A stretch of 64,000 nucleotides of DNA. Origin: Dictyostelium discoideum (taxonomy: Eukaryota). Below, one piece after another: positions 37,949 through 64,000 of the stretch. The stretch is from assembly GCA_000004695.1 (NCBI GenBank), contig CM000150.2:1696001-1760000 (forward strand), written 5' to 3'. Positions within the stretch are counted from its first letter, which is position 1; each line of letters opens with the position of its first letter. Made by a program: the position numbers and the translations under genes. The notes beneath the pieces are model-generated. The model worked only from the letters and a program-made list of their open reading frames with translations, ran no database searches and was not told where the DNA came from.

Positions 37949-39414
37949 TTATTGAGCTTCAACTTCAACATTTTTATTTTCAGTTGAATTTGAGGTAGCG
38001 TTGTCATCAATTGGAGCAACTGGAGTTGGTTCTTCAGTGGTGGTGGTAACTTTTTCATCAGCAGATTTTTCTTTTTCAGCAGTGGTGGTGGTAGCGGCAG
38101 TAGCAGCAGCTTCTTTATCAGCTTTGGCTTTTGCTAATCTTTCTTCCATTTGAGTTGCAGATAATTTTGAATAATGATCTTTCTTTGATTTAATTTGGTC
38201 AATATATTCAGGGATATCAGAGTATTTTGGTGGTGGAGCCATTGAGAGTTTTTCGAAATCAGAGAAGATCTCTAATGGATGTCTGATGGTATCTGGTTGA
38301 GCTTTTGGTTGTTGTTGTTGGAGTGCTTTCTTCTTTGGATTTTCACGATTCTTTGAGACTTTCTCCTTTTTGACGAGAACGAAACCCTCTTCAATTTCAG
38401 CGATATTACGATCCAAAGCAGATTGTTCATTGGTGGTTTCCTTTGGAGTGATAGCTTTGAGATAAGAGATGAGAGAATCACAATTGTTCATTTCCTTCTC
38501 GTAAGGTACTTTGAGGAGATCCTCTTGGATTCTTTTCTCCTCTTCGGCTTTCTTCTTTTCGAGGAGTTCTTGTCTACGTTGTTCTTGTTCGAGTTTACGT
38601 TGTTCTTGTTCGAGTTTACGTTGTTCCTTACGTTTGACGACGTGAGCCTCGAGCAAAGCCTTCTCCTCCTCGATATCCTTTTTAATCTCCTCGATGAAGC
38701 CACGAGAGGCAACAAACTTGTCGTTGTTCTCCTTGATCTCTGTCTCAACGTCTTTACGTTGTTGTTTGAGTTCCTTGAGAACGGCCTCTTGCTTCTCTCT
38801 TGGCTCCTCTGGCTTGATTTGAGCGCTCAACTCGTTGACTTGAGCTTTTTGTTCAGTGACTTGTTTCTTGATCTTTTCAAACTCGTTCTTGACTCCATAG
38901 TATTCGGTGACGTATTTCTTGCTGGAATTGACTTGAGACAATTTCTTCAAGAGGGCACGTTGTTGGTTTGGGTTGGTCTCATTCTCGACTTGCTCTTCCA
39001 ATTCACGAATTCTCTCTTCGATTGAACACATGGTGTCAACCTCTTCGGCGTTCTTGCTGATCTTTATTGGTAATTGGTCTTCGAGACTGATCAATATCTT
39101 CTTCTTCTCCTCTTGTGTTGCCATCAAGGCCTTTAAGGTATTACGTGCCTCAATGGTTTGGGCTTTCATTGGATCTGATGTACGACTCTTATTACCTTCA
39201 TAAATCTTTTCGATTGACTCTTTGTATCCAGTATGTTTCTTTTTTAATTCAACCATATCTTTCTTTAAATTTTCTAAATTATTATTAATCTCTACTATTT
39301 TATTTCTAAGTTCATTAATTCTCTTTTGATGTGCATCATAAACTGGATCTGGTGGGTATTTATTATCTTTATTATCTGAATTTGTATTATTATTATTACC
39401 GTCTCTATTATTTA

Positions 39415-39448
<34 letters not shown>

Positions 39449-39538
39449 GTTTTGTTTTTTTTCACCACCTTTGGTGTTATTATTTTTATTATTTGTAGTG
39501 GTAGTAGTTGTAGTTTTTTTAACTGATTTATCTGACAT
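37949..39538 (-). CDS. K/E-rich coiled-coil protein, possibly of the Bfr1/nuclear-segregation family, 529 aa
   Basis: Single ORF (…YKESIEKIYEGNKSRTSDPMKAQTIEARNTLKALMATQEEKK…KRKEQRKLEQEQRKLEQEQRRQELLEKKKAEEEKR…). GC content and GC3 are markedly higher than in neighbouring genes (for example ctcctcgatatcctttttaatctcctcgatgaagccacgagaggc). That pattern matches the codon bias of highly expressed Dictyostelium genes. Confidence 0.65.
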
Positions 39539-49341: not shown

Positions 49342-51124
49342 AATAAAAAAAAAATAAAAATAAAAATAAAAAAAAAAAAAAAAATAATAATGTAATGATA
49401 AAATAATAATAATAACAATAATAAATAAATAATAATACTACTTTTTTTTTTTTTTTTTAATATTTAAATCGTGATCCAATCAAAAATATAAAAAATTATT
49501 TTTAATTTGATTTATTATCTATTAATCAATGAATAAAAATTTTTTTAATCCAGATAAAATAAAAGTTCGATTCATATTAATTAATGGTAAAACTGACAAT
49601 TATGATTTTTTGAAGTTTTAATAAATTTCAAATTTTATTTCATTTAAAATATAAAAATTTATAATATAAATTTTATTTATTTTATTAATTAAAAATTCAA
49701 ATAAAAACAATAATTTGATTTTTTTTAAATCTTTCCATTTAGTCATCTAGATAATTCCAAAATCTAACCCTAAAAAATTTAAATCCTCAAATCCAAACTA
49801 TTTTTTATTTTATTAAAAATTTTGAAAATTGTAAAACGAAATCAAAAATAATAAAATGACTCCACACTTATTAAACAATAAAAAAAAAATAAAAAAAATT
49901 AAACACAAAACAGACAAATAAAATAAAAAAATAATTGTGTTTTTATTAATTTTAAAGATATACCGAATTTTATAAAAATCAAAAAAAAAACTAACCCATG
50001 TATATATATGTATATATATAATAAAAAAAAAATAATTAACTTTGGTATTATTTTATTTATTTTGGTTGTTTTGATTAAATTGGGTTATGCTTATGTAGTG
50101 AAAATCAACCAAAAATGATAATTATATATAAAAAAAAAATAATAAATAATTATTTTTAGTTTAACCCGAAATAATTTTAACCTCAGATCTAAAATGATTT
50201 AATTTTTATTATTTTTTTACTTAAACAAGGGGTGGTTGGTAGTTTTTAAAAAATAATGAAAAAAAAAAAAAAAAAAGGTTAACAACTTAAAGAGTTGTTT
50301 TTTTTAGTGTTTTGAATTACTTTTTACCACATTCTATCATTGATCAGTTTCAAAAACATGATCATTTAATAATTAACTAACAAATCTTGGTTTATTAACA
50401 TTTAAAAGTTTTTGTTCTGAAAAAAAAAATAAACTAAAATAAAATAATAATAAAAAAAAAAAAAAAAAAATGTTGCCATACACAAATATATTCATTCATT
50501 CTCTGATTTTTAAAAAAATAGGAAATAATCTAAATTTTTATAATAAAAATCCAATGAATATATCACCTCAAATTTATTAAATTATACGTCTACTCTCTCT
50601 CTCTCTTTTTAAAATTTTACATATTTAAATTATTTCAAATTTGTAAAAATTAAAATTTTATTTAAAATAAAATATTATACAAAAAAAAAAAAAAAAAAAA
50701 AAAAACTATAAATACCAATTTTAAAAATAAATTTTTTTTCATTATTAACTTATTTATTTATTTATTTATTTATTTAAAAAAAAAAAAAAAAAAAACAATT
50801 TAAACTTTATTACATTTTATTATTTTAAAATATGGCAATTTTTAGTAAATATTTTTTTTTATTAGAAATAAAAAATAAAAAGATTAATAAAAATATTAAC
50901 AAATATAAATTAAAATTTTTTAAAGATAATATTTCAAAAAATTCATTAAATATTAAATCAAATAATTTAATTATTAATCAAAATTTTAATCAAAATTTAA
51001 ATCATACCCAAAATAATATTACAAGAATGTATACTTCAAGTAAATGGGTTTATGTTTCATTTTATTATGAAAGAAATTCTTGTTCTCTTGGTAGTTATTA
51101 TTAAAATAAATATTTTTTTTAAAA

Positions 51125-51172
<48 letters not shown>

Positions 51173-51428
51173 TTCATAAATCATTTATTTAATTATTTTA
51201 AATAAAAAAAAAAAAAAAGTAATATTAAATTTGTTATATTAATACAAAAAAAAAAAAAAAGAGAAATTACATTATTATTATTTTTTTTTTTTATTTAATT
51301 TTAATGATTAAAAAAAAAATTGTAATTTCGTTAGTTATTACCCATTTTATTTTTACCAAAATTTTATAAATGATTAAGAAATTTGATTTATCTTTTTTTT
51401 TTTTTTTTTTAAATAAATCACTAGTCGA

Positions 51429-56058: not shown

Positions 56059-58689
56059 ATGGGTGATATTCAAAATACAGATAATATAGAATCAAATATA
56101 GATAATAATAATAATAATAATGTTTCATTAGAATCATCATCATCATCACAAAATAATAATACAAATACAACTACAACTACAACTACAACATCAGTTGATA
56201 ATTTACAAGTTGGAGTATTATCAATTAGTGATCAATCAACACCAACAATTGAAACACCAAATCAACAACAACAACAACAACAAGATGATAATAATAGAGG
56301 TGTATCAAATGAAACAATTAAAGCATCATTAGATGGATTAAAACATAATTCATTAAAAACAACATTTCCAAATTCAACAAATCATCAATATATTGATGTT
56401 AATACGCAATGGATAACAAATAAATTAAAAGAGAGAGAATCTGAATTTACAGAGAAAAGAGGTATGAGTATATTTTTAGGTACATGGAATGTAAATGGTA
56501 AAAAACCATCGGAATCATTAGATCCATGGTTAAAAGATCCATCAATGTCATTACAACCCGACATTTATGCAATTGGATTTCAAGAATTAGATTTAACAGC
56601 AGAGGCATTGCTATTGGGTGACACAACCAGATCATTACCATGGGAACAACACATTTTAAATACATTACAAGGTGACTATGTTAAACTATTAAGTAAACAA
56701 TTGGTTGGTATATTATTATGTGTTTACGTTAAAAAAGAACATAAACCACATATTGCAAATGTTCAATCCGATATTGCAGCCGTTGGTATAATGGGTATGA
56801 TGGGTAATAAAGGTGGTGTTGCAATTAGATTTTCATTTTATAATACAACCATCTGTATTTTAAATTCTCATTTAAATGCTCATATGGATAATGTTTTACG
56901 TCGTAATCAAGATATGAAAGATATTTCAAAAAATATTAAATTTATAAATGAATCTTCAACTGATCATTCAACTATAAATATTTTTGATCATGAGTAAGTT
57001 AAAAAAAAAAAAAAAAAAATTAATTTTATTATAAGAATCATTTCAAGTTTGTGCACACTTTTTTTTTTTTTTTTGCAATTAAAAATATTTTTATATGGGG
57101 GGTACTCATATAAAAATAATATTAATTTTTCAAATTTTTGAAAAAGTTTGTAAAAACTTGAATGATTTTCATAATATATAATTTAATAAAAAAAAAATAT
57201 ATTAATAATAATATTTTTTTTTTTTTTTTTTTTTTATTTTTTTTTTAAAAAAAAAAAAAGTCAATTATTTTGGATTGGTGATTTAAATTATAGAATACCA
57301 TTACCAGATAATGAAGTTAAAGAAAAAATTAAAAAAAAAGATTTTTATAATTTATTTTTAGTTGATCAATTAAATCAACAAATGAAAGCTGGAGCAGTAT
57401 TTGAAGGATTTCAAGAACCACCAATTAGTTTTGCACCAACTTATAAATATGATGCAGGTACAGAAGAATATGATAGTAGTGAAAAGAAGAGAACACCAGC
57501 ATGGTGTGATCGTATACTTTGGAAAACTCATAAAAAAGCTGAAAATGTTGGTATTTTATCATACAAGAGAGCAGAGTTAATTTCATCAGATCATAGACCA
57601 GTTAGTGCATCATTTGTAATTAAAATTAAAGTTGTAATTCCAGATTCAAAAAATCGTATCTATCAAGAGATTGTTAAAGAATTGGATAAAAAAGAGAATG
57701 ATAGTATGCCAGATGCAAATATCTCTACGAATATGGTAGATTTTGAAACTATTAAATTTATGCAACCAATTTCAAAACAATTAATATTTGAAAATATTGG
57801 TCAAGTTATTGCACGTTTTCAATTTATACCAAAGCTAGATGAAACAATACTTTGTAAACCTTGGTTAAAAATTTCACCATTAGCTGGTATGATGATACCA
57901 AAAGAAAAAGTTACAATTGATTTAACAATTTATGTTGATAATTTAACATCTGGTTTATTTAATATTAATAATAATTCAACAAATTCAACAAATGAATCAA
58001 TGGATGATATTTTAATTTTACATTTAGAAAATGGTAAAGATTATTTTATTTCAATTTCAGGTAAATTTCAAAAAACTTGTTTTGGTAATACATTGGATAA
58101 TTTAGTTAGATATCCACATCCAATTCGTAATAATTTACCAATACCACCTGAACAAAAGAAATTATCAATTCCAAAAGAATTGTGGAGAATAATTGATTAT
58201 ATTTATTATAATGGTTTAAAAGAGGAGGGATTATTTATAAAGAGTGGTGTAACCAAAGAAATGGAATTGATTCGTGATTGTTTAGATACCGCTGAACCAT
58301 TCTCTTCAATAAGTTTTTCAATTCATTCAATGGCTGAAACTTTAATTAGATTTTTAGAATCATTAGTTGAACCTGTTATACCATTCAATATGTATCAACA
58401 GGCGTTGGATGCTTCCTCTTCACCATTGTCTTGTAAAACTTTGGTTTCACATTTACCTTCGGTAAATTATAATGTATTCTTTTATTTAATCTCTTTTTTA
58501 ATTGAAACTTTATCAAATCAAAAAGAAAATGATTTAAAACCTGATCAATTGGCTATCATTTTTTCAACTGTTTTATTACGTCCTTCACCACAATCACAAT
58601 TATCACAATTCCCTCCTGATGCTACAACTGTTAAAAAGAAAGCTGATTTAATTTTACATTTTTTAATTTCAAAAGATTTAATTAATTAA
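56059..58689 (+). CDS. Dd5P4: OCRL-like inositol polyphosphate 5-phosphatase with a C-terminal RhoGAP domain, 2 exons (56059..56993, 57261..58689), 787 aa
   Basis: The exo/endo/phosphatase catalytic core is split by one intron (CATGA|gtaagtt, acceptor aaaaag|T) and reads as one frame: …FLGTWNVNGK…IYAIGFQELDL…LNSHLNAHMDNVLRRNQD…IFDHD/QLFWIGDLNYRIP…PTYKYD…PAWCDRILWK…SDHRPVSASF. An ASH-like beta domain follows, then RhoGAP (ELWRIIDYIYYNGLKEEGLFIKSGV…LIRFLESLVEPVIPF…LISFLIETLSNQKENDLKPDQLAIIFSTVLLRP). Confidence 0.85.
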
Positions 58690-58913
58690 AAAAAAAAAAT
58701 TTTAAAAAAAAAAAAATAATAATAAATAAAAAAAATAAAAAAAATAAATAAAAATAATAGAAATAATAATAAATAATAAAAAAATAAAATATATATATTA
58801 TTTTATTTATCTTGTTTTTTTTATTTTATTTTTATTTTTACTATATATATATAAAATGTTTTACAAGTTTTTTATTTTATTTTTTTTTTATTTTATTTTT
58901 TTTTTTCTAATCA

Positions 58914-58949
58914 TTAATTTTCTGGTGTTGTTGAAGTGGTATTATCACT

Positions 58950-59000
<51 letters not shown>

Positions 59001-59359
59001 TGTAATTGGACAATCCTTTTTAACTTTACAACATGATGATGATAATTTTCCAAATGATTCAGTATAACCAATACCAAAACCAATACCAGTTCCAATACAA
59101 ATTGATGATTTTGCAAAACCAACACTCTTTGCTTTATTTATTTAAAATTTAAAATAAAAATTAGTAAAAAAAAACTTTTCTTTTTTTGAAATCTAATAAT
59201 ATATGTGTGTTGATTGGAATTAAAAAAAAAAAAAAAAAACTTTTTCAACTTACTAAATACAAATAAAACAAATGGTAAAGAGAAACCAATTAATGTCTTT
59301 TTTACAACATTTTCAACACCTCTTTCACGTTGAATTTTTTCTTGATCAATAATTGACAT
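58914..59359 (-). CDS. Small membrane protein with a glycine-zipper motif, about 107 aa, 2 exons (59359..59254, 59131..58914)
   Basis: Exon 1 encodes MSIIDQEKIQRERGVENVVKKTLIGFSLPFVLFVF, with donor TTTA|gtaagttg (phase 1) and acceptor ataaag|CAAAG. Exon 2 encodes TKSVGFAKSSICIGTGIGFGIGYTESFGKLSSSCCKVKKDCPITN(N)n…TPEN. The GxGxGxG pattern is reminiscent of Mic10/MINOS1-like small mitochondrial membrane proteins, but that assignment is speculative. Confidence 0.45.
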
Positions 59360-59480
59360 TATTTATTTTAAAATTTTTTTTTTTTTTCTTTCTTTAAAAT
59401 TCGTTTAATATATAAATTCATAAAAAAAAAAAAAAAAAAAAATTCTTTTCTAAAACAAAAAAAAAAAAAAAAAAAAATTC

Positions 59481-59518
<38 letters not shown>

Positions 59519-59752
59519 TATTTTTTTTAAATTTTTTTATTAATTATTTAATTTCCTTTTTAATCTTTTTTTATTTTTGTAAATCAAAAAATATCGATTT
59601 GCTAATTATGAGTTTTTACAATTTTCTTCAATTTAGGTTAATCAAAATTGGTGTGTGTTTAGGTTTCAAAAAAAAAAAAAAAAAAAAAATAAAGAAATTA
59701 ACAATTTCTGATTAAATTATTTTTCACATATATTGTTAATATTATTTATATA

Positions 59753-59759
59753 TTGGTTG

Positions 59760-59842
<83 letters not shown>

Positions 59843-59852
59843 TTTTGTCGAA
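59753..59852. repeat. (AAT)n microsatellite, about 100 bp
   Basis: Perfect trinucleotide array, visible directly in the sequence. Confidence 0.95.
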
Positions 59853-59904
59853 GAAGTTCCCGCCCCCAGCCCCCGAATAATTTGATTTTATGTTACAATA
59901 TTTT

Positions 59905-60315
59905 TTTTTTTACAACACTTACCTTCACCCAAAGACCACCACATGTTGATGCGTACCCACCCATCCAACCCCATATGCCTGATACCTAAAAATACTGAAT
60001 TTAAAACAATTTATTATTCTGTTTTTGCTTAATATTATTTTATTTTTTTCTTTTTATTTATAATTATATATAATTCTTACCCTATAAAACATAAAATATT
60101 TATAACACCTTAAATAGTTACCCCAATATGCTTGACACCTAAAAATACTGAATTTAAAATAATTAATAATTATTCTGTTTTTGCTTACTATTATTTTATT
60201 TTTTTCTTTTTATTTATAATTATATATATATAATTCTTACCATATAAAATATAAAATATTTATAACTTGAATTAAAGTCCACCAATGGACTACCACACCT
60301 AATACAAATGATTCC

Positions 60316-60397
<82 letters not shown>

Positions 60398-60670
60398 CAC
60401 ATACCTTCACCTAAAGACCACCACATGTTGACGCATACCCACCCATCCAACCCCATATGCTTGACACATAAAAATACTGAATTTAAAATAATTAATTATT
60501 CTGTTTTTGCTTAATATTTTTTTATTTTTTTCTTTTTATTTATTATTTTATATAATTCTTACCCTATAAAACATAAAATATTTAAAACTTACCTTAAAAG
60601 TTCACCAATTGACCACCACACCTAATACAAATGATTCCATTATTTTTTTTTTTTTTTTTTTTTTTTTTTT
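59905..60670 (-). mobile_element. Two tandem retroposon-like insertions, poly(A)-terminated on the minus strand. Modular structure B–unit–A with an internal unit duplication; an unclassified SINE or 5'-truncated non-LTR 3' end.
   Basis: Plus-strand layout: (T)13 | A (acaacacttaccttcacccaaagaccaccacatgttgatgcgtacccacccatccaacc) | unit1 | unit2 | B (ttgaattaaagtccaccaatggactaccacacctaatacaaatgattccattaa) | (T)~75 | A' | unit3 | B' | (T)~25. Units are about 130 bp and 85-90% identical (ccatatgcttgacacctaaaaatactgaatttaaaataatta…ctgtttttgctta…aattcttaccctataaaacataaaatatttataac). Each copy therefore ends in poly(A) on the minus strand directly after module A. Confidence 0.55.
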
Positions 60671-60760
60671 GAACATACATTTATAGACCATACTTGATAT
60701 TAATTGACCCTAATACTATCACCCTGTTTATTTATTTTTCAAATTTTTGATTACAAAAAT

Positions 60761-61123
60761 TTAAATCAAAATTAACAGAGAGTACTTCAGATCTGGACAA
60801 AATACTAGGTTTGAACCAATTAAATCTTTAAGATTTCCTCTATACTCTTTTTCATCGATTAAGAGAAAACCCATAAAGAATTTAGTATAACAAACACCAA
60901 ATACAAATATATTACTATCATCATTAAATTCGAGTAAACCTGAAATATCTTCAATATTAACTTGACCACTAGTACCATATATTATTTTAACATTTTCATT
61001 CACTATTGGGTCAATTGTATTATACCCTTTTCTTTTAAATTCTGACACCATTTGATTTTTATCTTTCTCATTTTCACATGAAATTAATAATTGAATGATT
61101 TCCTTTTTCTTTTTCTTTCTCAT
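60761..61123 (-). CDS. Hypothetical ORF, 120 aa, of uncertain reality
   Basis: The ORF (…KGYNTIDPIVNENVKIIYGTSGQVNIEDISGLLEFNDDSNIFVFGVCYTKFFMGFLLIDEKEYRGNLKDLIGSNLVFCPDLKY) has a non-repetitive composition. It sits between the retroposon array and the left arm of the inverted paralogue pair. No family I can recognise. Confidence 0.3.
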   Translation of the reverse strand: MRKKKKKEIIQLLISCENEKDKNQMVSEFKRKGYNTIDPIVNENVKIIYGTSGQVNIEDISGLLEFNDDSNIFVFGVCYTKFFMGFLLIDEKEYRGNLKDLIGSNLVFCPDLKYSLLILI

Positions 61124-61206
61124 TTTAATTATTGAATAATTTATAATATTGGTTACATCTTCAATTTCATTTTTTATTAGATTATAAGATTGAAATTTTA
61201 TTTTAA

Positions 61207-61229
61207 CTAATAGAATAAAAGAAAAAAAA

Positions 61230-61315
<86 letters not shown>

Positions 61316-61821
61316 GTTGGAGTGTATGGTTTTGGTTTAGGTGGTGGTGGTGGTGGTGTTGGTAGTGGTTTTGATGCTGGTTTTGATAGTGGTTTTGATG
61401 GTGGTTTTGATGGTGGTTTTGATAGTGGTGGAGTTGATAGTGGTAGCGTTGGTATTGATGGTGTTGGTATTGATGGTGTTGATGGTGATATTGGTGGCGT
61501 TAATGGTGTTGGTATTAATGGTATTGATGGTATTAATGGTTTTGATGATGTTGGTATTGATGGTGTTGGTATTGATGGTGTTGATGGTGTTGATGGTGTT
61601 GATTGTGATATTGGTGGCGTTAATGGTGTTAATAGTGATGATGATGGGGACAAAAAAGAAGCTAATCCGGCTGTTGGTAAAGGAAATTCAAATGATTCGT
61701 TTAAAGTATTTTGAGATTGGTGGTAGTGGTGCGATTGAAATACTATTTTGGTTGCATCAGTTACGTCTTTTCTATCTGTTATAAACGATTCATGGTTTAG
61801 TTTTATTCTTTTTGCATTCAC
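61207..61821 (-). CDS. Hypothetical protein with an N-terminal NAKRIK…ESFEFPL motif and a Pro/Ser/Thr-rich (SKPP)n tail. This is the left, intact member of a divergent paralogue pair.
   Basis: Product: MNAKRIKLNHESFITDRKDVTDATKIVFQSHHYHQSQNTLNESFEFPLPTAGLASFLSPSSSLLTPLTPPISQSTP…SKPPSKPPSKPLSKPASKPLPTPPPPPP…(N)n. The same motif recurs 1.5 times in inverted orientation at 62915-63396. Confidence 0.4.
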
Positions 61822-61879
61822 TATATCATCTGGATTTATTAAATTGTTTTTTTGTGGTGTGATATTTTTAACTGGCGTT

Positions 61880-62095
<216 letters not shown>

Positions 62096-62384
62096 GTTGA
62101 TTTTTGTATTGTATTAGAGGTGATAGTTGTTGATTGTGCTTGCTAAAAACTTGCTGGAAACTGTGATTGATTATCTTCTAATTTTACTGTTGGAATTGTT
62201 GTGTTCGTTTGGTGGTGATTCATCATTTAAATTTAAAAATGGGAAGGGGATTTTGCCTCTTTCAAAGAATGAACCTAAATATTCAACAAGTAAACTTTAA
62301 ATGATATCAAATATTTACTTTTTTACATAATATTTAAAAAATAGCAAAAGGTTTGTCTGAGTTTACATTGTTATTTCCTTTGGA

Positions 62385-62640
62385 CAACTTTAAGTCGACT
62401 TTCCTCGCTTCCCATCGATGTGCCTCGCTCTGTCTGCTCTGTTGCCAGCCTGGACCTTGACTCGGTCATTATCAACTTACTTTCAATCCTTATGGACTCA
62501 AGGTATGTCGACACCAACGTAAGTGTGGATCAACTCTATGCGTCGTTTTCCCCAATGGTCTTAACAATGCTCTCATCCTCTCCTCTAACGCACCTCAGCA
62601 AGAGGTTATAGATAATCGCAACTAAATCCTGCATACCAGA
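62385..62640. other. GC-rich island of about 250 bp, with local GC above 50% against a genome background of about 22%, carrying an intron-like GTAAGT…polypyrimidine…CAG signature
   Basis: Sequence: ctttcctcgcttcccatcgatgtgcctcgctctgtctgctctgttgccagcctggaccttgactcggtc…caaggtatgtcgacaccaacGTAAGTgtggatcaactctatgcgtcgttttccccaatggtcttaacaatgctctcatcctctcctctaacgcacctCAGcaagagg. The composition and the pyrimidine-tract style are unlike Dictyostelium introns or genes. It matches no snRNA, 5S or tRNA consensus I can recall. Confidence 0.6.
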
Positions 62641-62721
62641 CAATAATATTCAAATCTATTTAAAACTTTTTTTATTTGATAATAATGTTTTTATGGGAGA
62701 TTTTTCTTTTATTTTGAAATT

Positions 62722-62760
<39 letters not shown>

Positions 62761-62914
62761 CTGAGATTGAAAATTTCAATGTTTTGATAATTTTTTGAAG
62801 AATAAACCATCAATCATTTATTGTTTTTTTTAATTTCAATTTTTAAAATACCTATTAGCAGTTGGATACCAATCAAAAAACAAAAGTCAAAAAATTATCA
62901 AAACACCGAAACAT

Positions 62915-63396
62915 GTAACTGATGCAACCAAAATAGTTTTTCATTCACACCACCACCACCACCACCACCACCAATCGCATAATACTTTCAACAATCACTT
63001 GAATTTCCTTTACCAACAGCCACATTAGCAGATTCATTTAAATCAAACACCACATTATTTTCTTCTCCTTCTTCTTTGTTGCCATCATCATCAACACAAT
63101 CAACACCATTAACACCACCAATATCACAATCAACACCAATTAAAAATATCACACCACAAAAAAACAATTTAATAAATCCATATGATATAGTAAATGCAAA
63201 AAGAATAAAACCAAACCATGAATCATTTATAAAAGATAGAAAAGCCAAAATAGTATTTCAATCACCCCACCAATCTCAAAATACTTTAAATGAATCATTT
63301 GAATTTCCTTTATCAACAGCCACATTAGCAGATTCATTTAAATCAAACACCTCATTATTTTCTAAATCTTTTTTTATTTTATTGTCGGCTTCGTGA
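62915..63396 (+). pseudogene. Right-arm paralogue of the NAKRIK…ESFEFPL protein. It holds 1.5 motif copies with a frameshift in the first copy and no ATG start; likely degenerate.
   Basis: The first copy, VTDATKIVFHSHHHHHHHQSHNTFNNH, shifts frame and hits a stop. The second frame reads SLEFPLPTATLADSFKSNTTLFSSPSSLLPSSSTQSTPLTPPISQSTPIKNITPQKNNLINPYDIVNAKRIKPNHESFIKDRKAKIVFQSPHQSQNTLNESFEFPLSTATLADSFKSNTSLFSKS*. The only in-frame starts are TTG, which are not used in Dictyostelium. Confidence 0.35.
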
Positions 63397-63552
63397 TTGA
63401 TGATGATGACGACATATTTGAATTGTTTTAAAAAAAATCTTTTTTTTTTTTTTTTTTTTTTTTTGAATGGAATAACGCAATTTTTAGTTGCTTCTTCTTG
63501 AGATATATCTCATTTTATTATTAAATATTTTACAGGTGCCTTTTAAGGTTGT

Positions 63553-63594
<42 letters not shown>

Positions 63595-63596
63595 TT

Positions 63597-63730
63597 GGGG
63601 GTGTAGAGTGTGTTGAGTGATGTAATATATTTATTGAGGTTTGATGGTAATGTTACTGTGAGTTCCAGTATTTGCTAAATCTTTCAAGTTGCAGGGAGAT
63701 GATGTTTTTTTTTGTATTTTAATAAAAAAA
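63597..63730 (+). mobile_element. Candidate 3'-terminal fragment of a tRNA-gene-targeted non-LTR retroelement (TRE5-like C-module plus oligo(A)), ending about 37 bp upstream of the tRNA-Lys gene
   Basis: A G-rich block that differs from the AT background (taagttgggggtgtagagtgtgttgagtgatgtaat…gtgagttccagtatttgctaaatctttcaagttgcagggagatgatg) is bounded by (T)n at 63548-63590 and ends in aataaaaaaa at 63721-63730. Its position just upstream of a tRNA matches the known TRE5 integration preference of about 48 bp upstream of tRNA genes. Confidence 0.3.
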
Positions 63731-63766
63731 CCTGATGGAGTAAATAAATTTTGATTTCATATCAAT

Positions 63767-63839
63767 GCCCGGCTAGCTCAGTCGGTAGAGCGCCAGACTC
63801 TTAATCTGGTGGTCGGGGGTTCGAGCCCCCCGTTGGGCG
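63767..63839 (+). tRNA. tRNA-Lys (anticodon CUU), 73 nt, no intron
   Basis: gcccggctagctcagtcggtagagcgccagactCTTaatctggtggtcgggggttcgagccccccgttgggcg. The cloverleaf has a 7-bp acceptor stem (gcccggc/gttgggc), A-box tagctcagtcgg and B-box ggttcgagccc. It is near-identical to eukaryotic tRNA-Lys-CTT. Confidence 0.93.
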
Positions 63840-63870
63840 AAATTTTATTTGTAAGGATATTAAAGTCGAG

Positions 63871-63881
63871 GGATCGACTCC
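63871..63881 (+). promoter_or_regulatory. External B-box (exB) about 32 bp downstream of the tRNA-Lys gene
   Basis: ggatcgactcc matches the B-box consensus GGTTCGANTCC with one mismatch. Dictyostelium tRNA genes characteristically carry an extra B-box about 30-40 bp downstream, which is also implicated in TRE targeting. Confidence 0.5.
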
Positions 63882-64000
63882 ATAAAAATCAATGACTATT
63901 CACCTAACTTCCTATGAGACTTTTAATGTATATATTGGTTTAGTCATGATGGTTGAACCTGGTGTACTAAATATTAGGATTGCCTATAATGAATGATATT

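Follow-up and report, generated by a model that had tools for sequence, protein, structure and literature searches.

Eukaryotic SRP RNA folds as a long rod, helix 5, to which two functional ends are attached. The S domain, consisting of helices 6 and 8, binds SRP19 and SRP54, with conserved residues of the helix-8 loop binding SRP54 in other eukaryotes, and the Alu-like domain is built from the 5' and 3' ends of the RNA and binds SRP9/14. The assembled SRP pauses the translation of nascent secretory and membrane proteins and brings the ribosome to the ER translocon. In human 7SL RNA, helix 8 has the sequence CAGGUCGGAAACGGAGCAGG, which follows the pattern CAGG-N-NGG-NAA-CNG-AGCAG. The SRP RNA of Dictyostelium discoideum was reportedly first described, together with DUSE-bearing ncRNAs, by Aspegren et al. 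in Nucleic Acids Research in 2004.

Rfam gives the Dictyostelium RNAs a family of their own inside the SRP clan. Expression of SRP RNA in D. discoideum is well established: the RNA has been probed on Northern blots (PMC2175303), and it is included in the ncRNA classes of this organism (PMC6161686). Many ncRNA genes of D. discoideum and D. purpureum are preceded, about 63 bp upstream, by the DUSE, [AT]CCCA[AT]AA (PMC3188802). Across the Dictyostelia this element lies about 60 nt upstream and is common to Pol II and Pol III genes, with three consecutive Cs in the DUSE being typical of Groups 1 and 4 (PMC7919456).

Here, we propose with high confidence that a GC-rich block within a 64-kb stretch of D. 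discoideum DNA (64,000 nt in full, hereafter the window) is a complete SRP (7SL) RNA gene on the minus strand. It is a gene of a known kind and almost certainly the already described D. discoideum SRP RNA gene itself. The initial annotation of the window had singled out the block for a foreign-looking intron signature and for its position between two outward-facing copies of one ORF, and had offered as explanations a structured ncRNA gene, a horizontally acquired or transposon-borne fragment, a bidirectional control region, and the core of a composite mobile element. The first of these options was the correct one.

The GC-rich block and the SRP RNA family

Infernal cmscan was run on positions 58000-64000 against all of Rfam 15, a check that the initial annotation had itself suggested, and the whole window was also scanned at gathering thresholds. 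The outcome was a full-length match to RF01570 (Dictyostelium_SRP, clan CL00003) running from 62634 to 62352 on the minus strand, with a score of 308.5 bits (3.4 times the gathering score of 90) and an E-value of 2.2e-92 in the 6-kb search and 2.3e-91 in the search of the whole window. The match covers model positions 1-283 of 283, is not truncated and has zero indels, spanning the 5' domain, the helix 5 rod, and helices 6 and 8 of the model. At gathering thresholds the whole window gave this SRP RNA and one tRNA, and neither cmscan nor blastn found a further RF01570 hit or a second SRP RNA copy in the 64 kb. The gene and the signals that surround it are as follows:

62352..62634, minus strand: SRP (7SL) RNA gene, full length, 283 nt, by covariance model RF01570
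62698..62691, minus strand: DUSE TCCCATAA, at -64 to -57 from the first modelled base, fitting [AT]CCCA[AT]AA
62657..62664, minus strand: TATA-like element TTTAAATA, at -30 to -23, read from the sequence
62336..62349, minus strand: putative Pol III terminator, consisting of T4 at 62349-62346 and T6 at 62341-62336, T-runs lying 3-16 nt past the 3' end

When the consensus structure of the family was mapped onto the sequence, 84 of the 92 model base pairs (91%) were occupied by standard pairs (G-C, A-U or G-U), with five of the eight non-standard pairs falling in the 5' (Alu-like) domain. Overall identity to the RF01570 consensus is 85.5%, and at the highly conserved (upper-case) consensus positions it is 105 of 106. 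Five differences from the consensus are two-sided and keep the pairing (cg to AU twice, cg to UA twice, and gc to UA). The helix-8 segment, CCAGGCUGGCAACAGAGCAGAC, carries a GCAA tetraloop and agrees with the family consensus at all upper-case positions, the GNAR-type tetraloop and the flanking conserved AGCA/CAGG internal-loop residues both being present. Such a pattern of pairing and conservation is what would be expected of a functional member of the family and not of a decaying copy. The long helix-5 rod and its two apical hairpins also emerge when the 283 nt are folded by minimum free energy (MFE) alone (-79.5 kcal/mol; z = -3.43 relative to dinucleotide shuffles), with the 5' domain being drawn unlike the Rfam consensus.

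Compared with RF01570 and the D. discoideum SRP RNA, the locus thus agrees in length (283 nt), in consensus secondary structure, and in the conserved positions, including the SRP54-binding region of helix 8. Apart from an identity to the consensus of 85.5% and the eight non-standard pairs already mentioned, nothing of substance sets it apart. With human 7SL RNA (RN7SL1) it shares the rod-like architecture overall and the helix-8 pattern, which is found here as CAGGCUGGCAACAGAGCAGA, and both genes are expected to be transcribed by Pol III with an upstream promoter element. Unlike in human 7SL, the 5' Alu-type domain of the Dictyostelium family is modelled differently, and the promoter has a DUSE where the human gene uses upstream and internal elements. 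The helix-8 pattern CCAGGCNGGCAACNGAGCAGAC was also found in two metagenome contigs, neither of which has an SRP RNA at the Rfam gathering score; these are chance hits.

How does this identification bear on the base composition that first drew attention to the block? The GC content is 46.5% in 62385-62640 against 22.2% for the whole window, is 44.5% over the extent of the RNA gene (62352-62634), and reaches a maximum of about 49% in the best 200-nt sub-window. The existence of a GC-rich island is therefore borne out, but its description as being above 50% GC was an overstatement. Among 256-nt windows across the 64 kb (mean GC 0.221, sd 0.081), the island lies about 3 sd over the background and ranks second among the GC peaks. 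Its high GC content is explained by its being a heavily base-paired RNA within a 22% GC genome. It had further been said that none of the candidate explanations was a standard Dictyostelium feature, which is wrong, since GC-rich ncRNA genes with an upstream DUSE are standard in dictyostelid genomes and have been published (PMC3188802, PMC7919456).

The one island in the window with a higher GC content (47.3% over the 256 nt that begin at 38590) belongs to a 529-aa ORF at 37949-39538 on the minus strand, whose product is Lys/Glu-rich and coiled-coil-looking and which has neither a Pfam match nor an Rfam hit. This peak is ordinary coding GC enrichment and no second RNA gene.

There is a lesson here for AT-rich genomes such as that of Dictyostelium. 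Isolated islands of about 45-50% GC that extend over a few hundred bases should be treated first as structured RNA candidates, with SRP RNA, snRNAs, tRNAs, and Class I RNAs being the classes to suspect, and covariance models should be run on both strands of such islands before any splice-like hexamers within them are read.

Putative promoter and terminator signals

The 70 nt upstream of the RNA on the minus strand have the sequence AAAATCTCCCATAAAAACATTATTATCAAATAAAAAAAGTTTTAAATAGATTTGAATATTATTGTCTGGT, followed by ATGCAGG.... The DUSE in this segment is the sole DUSE match in the window with a GC-rich segment at +55 to +155. Both strands of the 64 kb together hold 10 matches to the motif, against 20 expected in shuffles, and with only 10 matches a chance occurrence at the right distance and on the right strand is unlikely. 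Other DUSE-preceded ncRNAs were looked for in the window and none was found.

For the TATA-like string we infer a promoter role from its position, which carries little weight in a 78% A+T genome. Across the modelled 3' end the sequence reads ...CTCAGACAAA up to the end and CCTTTTGCTATTTTTTAAAT beyond it, giving the order CC-TTTT-GCTA-TTTTTT, a canonical Pol III terminator context. T-runs are frequent in this genome, and the putative terminator is supportive at most.

In its arrangement the locus resembles the DUSE-dependent ncRNA genes of dictyostelids (snRNAs and Class I RNAs), having a CCC-type element about 60 nt upstream together with a T-run, as in Group 4 (PMC3188802, PMC7919456). It differs from them in that its product is SRP RNA and not an snRNA or Class I RNA, in that the window lacks the Class I motif CCTTACAG, and in that the stretch from the DUSE to the RNA start has no TGTG box. 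The locus also offers a tidy example of the layout of DUSE, TATA-like element, and T-run around a dictyostelid SRP RNA gene.

In light of these signals, how might the gene work? Its promoter would consist of the DUSE about 60 nt upstream and the TATA-like element about 25-30 nt upstream, the polymerase would most likely be RNA polymerase III, stopping at the T-runs just past the 3' end, and the transcript would be a small stable RNA of about 283 nt. Pol III use, the exact 5' and 3' ends, protein binding, and the expression of this particular copy are what we infer here. The RNA may in fact begin slightly upstream of 62634, for instance in GTCTGGT, and its 3' terminus would be expected in the T4 run or immediately ahead of it.

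The inverted duplication on either side of the gene

The RNA gene is flanked by two related segments, one on each strand:

61661..61926, minus strand: unique core of the left flanking ORF, whose open frame covers 61207-62142; an inverted duplicate of this core lies on the right
62909..63363, plus strand: rearranged partial copy of the left ORF, with 71% amino acid identity over 83 aa

That inverted copies flank the block, as originally claimed, was confirmed by blastn within the window, which aligned 61661-61926 with the opposite strand of the right flank at 63329-63082 (82% identity over 270 nt, E = 1.6e-72) and 61594-61770 with 63138-62909 (68% over 231 nt). The peptide match between the flanks extends from PVKNITPQKNNLINPDDIVNAKRIKLNHESF to SQNTLNESFEFPL, the arms are about 1.15 kb apart, and both copies read away from the island. 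Two parts of the original description need qualification. The block does not lie exactly between the copies, since 125 nt separate it from the ATG at 62226 on the left and 275 nt from the start of similarity at 62909 on the right, so that the wording holds only approximately. As for there being two copies of an ORF, the similarity is real but the right copy contains no intact ORF. No Pfam family was found in either flanking copy or in a 120-aa ORF at 60761-61123, and blastn showed no further occurrence of the arms or of the RNA gene in the 64-kb window.

The left open frame (61207-62142, minus strand) is rich in Thr, Pro/Ser, and Asn tracts and has no ATG inside the frame. An ATG does occur at 62226, with an in-frame TAG 27 codons later, and dropping a 45-nt GTAAAA...TTTTTAG segment (62187-62143) restores one frame. 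On this reading of the sequence, either the segment may be an unusually short intron or the left gene may be disabled. Two very long, perfect trinucleotide arrays also lie in the left gene. At 61230-61315, TAT is repeated 28.7 times and reads as Asn on the coding strand, and at 61877-62093 there are about 72 GTT triplets, which on that strand give a Thr tract in the open frame. Such arrays are typical dictyostelid homopolymer tracts. The right copy consists of about 1.7 tandem units, with a direct repeat (62963-63063 and 63263-63363) at 91%, and has a frameshift near 62990 and no ATG in an open frame. It is probably a decayed partial duplicate that would no longer code for protein.

In our reading, part of a neighbouring low-complexity protein gene was duplicated locally in inverted orientation and has partly decayed, which is incidental and unrelated to the function of the RNA. 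The position of the SRP RNA gene near the pivot of this duplication may be coincidental. One could instead suppose that heavy transcription of this gene by Pol III made the site fragile or a barrier to replication forks and so gave rise to a fold-back inverted duplication, a speculation that we think very unlikely and that the data do not require. If true, it would mean that a Pol III gene has, in nature, influenced the structure of the dictyostelid DNA around it.

Rival readings and neighbouring features

According to the initial annotation, the plus strand of the block carries a textbook intron of the fungal or metazoan kind, which would make it part of a foreign or horizontally acquired protein-coding fragment. 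The elements of this supposed intron do exist on the plus strand, with GTAAGT at 62519-62524 (the proposed junction at 62527 being a few bases off), a pyrimidine-rich run of 29 nt, ctctcatcctctcctctaacgcacctCAG, at 62570-62598, and CAG at 62596-62598. All of them lie within, and antisense to, the full-length SRP RNA match, being the reverse complements of ...CCACACUUACG... in helix 5 and of the purine-rich CUGAGGUGCGUUAGAGGAGAGGAUGAGAG near the RNA 5' end. The 80-nt pyrimidine-rich stretch that had been reported is in fact just this 29-nt run, and the 86-nt interval 62527-62612 is 59% pyrimidine on the plus strand, no richer than the block itself (61%). With both strands counted, the window holds 19 copies of GTAAGT, and a single occurrence in 283 nt is unremarkable and expected by chance. 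No coding exons flank the supposed intron, the sole plus-strand ORF in the block being one of 63 aa (62420-62611) that begins with GTG and reads straight through it. Moreover, RF01570 is specific to Dictyostelium, and the sequence is thus native and not foreign; the suggestion of horizontal acquisition is likewise unsupported. The foreign-intron reading, to which we assign next to no probability, is effectively refuted, and a spliceosomal intron was accordingly rejected as a class for these motifs. What remains is a clean negative, in which what looked like a foreign intron signature turns out to be the antisense strand of an ordinary housekeeping ncRNA gene.

Two further readings were weighed. 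One is that the block is a non-functional extra copy of the SRP RNA, a pseudogene or retro-copy like the 7SL-derived repeats of animals, which we consider very improbable. The non-standard pairs and the imperfect identity to the consensus would be in keeping with it, as would the local duplication and rearrangement seen around the block. Against this, the copy is complete and without indels, keeps all but one of the 106 highly conserved positions, differs from the consensus on both sides of pairs in ways that keep the pairing, and possesses its own DUSE at the canonical distance along with a T-run terminator; it has no poly(A) tail and no flanking target-site duplication, and the 64 kb hold no second copy. 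The other makes the block the centre of a composite mobile element, with the inverted ORF copies as its arms, or else a transposon-borne fragment, and to this we give hardly any credence. The inverted similarity around the block and its spacing are real, but the arms are low-complexity, decayed coding fragments and not terminal repeats, the right one being internally duplicated and frameshifted. Neither the interval between the arms nor the adjacent DNA has an ORF for a transposase, integrase, or reverse transcriptase, and the core is a housekeeping RNA gene. Membership in a transposon or composite element was therefore rejected, at the scope of the window, on repeats, on enzyme, and on further copies. 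The last option, a GC-rich bidirectional control region, is unsupported. An SRP RNA gene thus remains by far the best account of the block.

Several other features of the surrounding DNA were observed. A two-exon gene at 56059-58689 on the plus strand encodes an OCRL-like inositol polyphosphate 5-phosphatase with ASH and RhoGAP domains. The best among the matches listed for its protein are dictyostelid, led by Polysphondylium violaceum at 83% and followed by two JGI entries at 82%, Cavenderia fasciculata at 71%, and Acytostelium subglobosum at 69%. Proteins named as coming from D. discoideum or D. purpureum do not occur among the matches listed. Taken together with the 22% GC and the CCC-type DUSE, these relatives indicate a Dictyostelium of Group 4, probably D. 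discoideum. Between this gene and the left flank, an AT-rich unit of about 230 nt is present in three direct copies (59901-60127, 60122-60347, and 60383/60451-60670) with 78-92% identity, and a weak copy occurs at 51107-51203 on the minus strand. Two of the units end in poly-T, with 73 T at 60321-60393 and about 30 T near 60644-60670. This intergenic repeat family (59900-60670) gave no Rfam hit.

On the other side of the RNA gene lies a tRNA-Lys(CTT) gene, at 63766-63840 on the plus strand. tRNA genes are targets of the TRE and DGLT-A retroelements, and extra B boxes downstream are typical of D. discoideum tRNA genes. An external B-box-like motif, GGATCGACTCC, is found here at 63871-63881, 31 nt past the tRNA gene, with one mismatch to the B-box core GTTCRANNC (PMC5391098).
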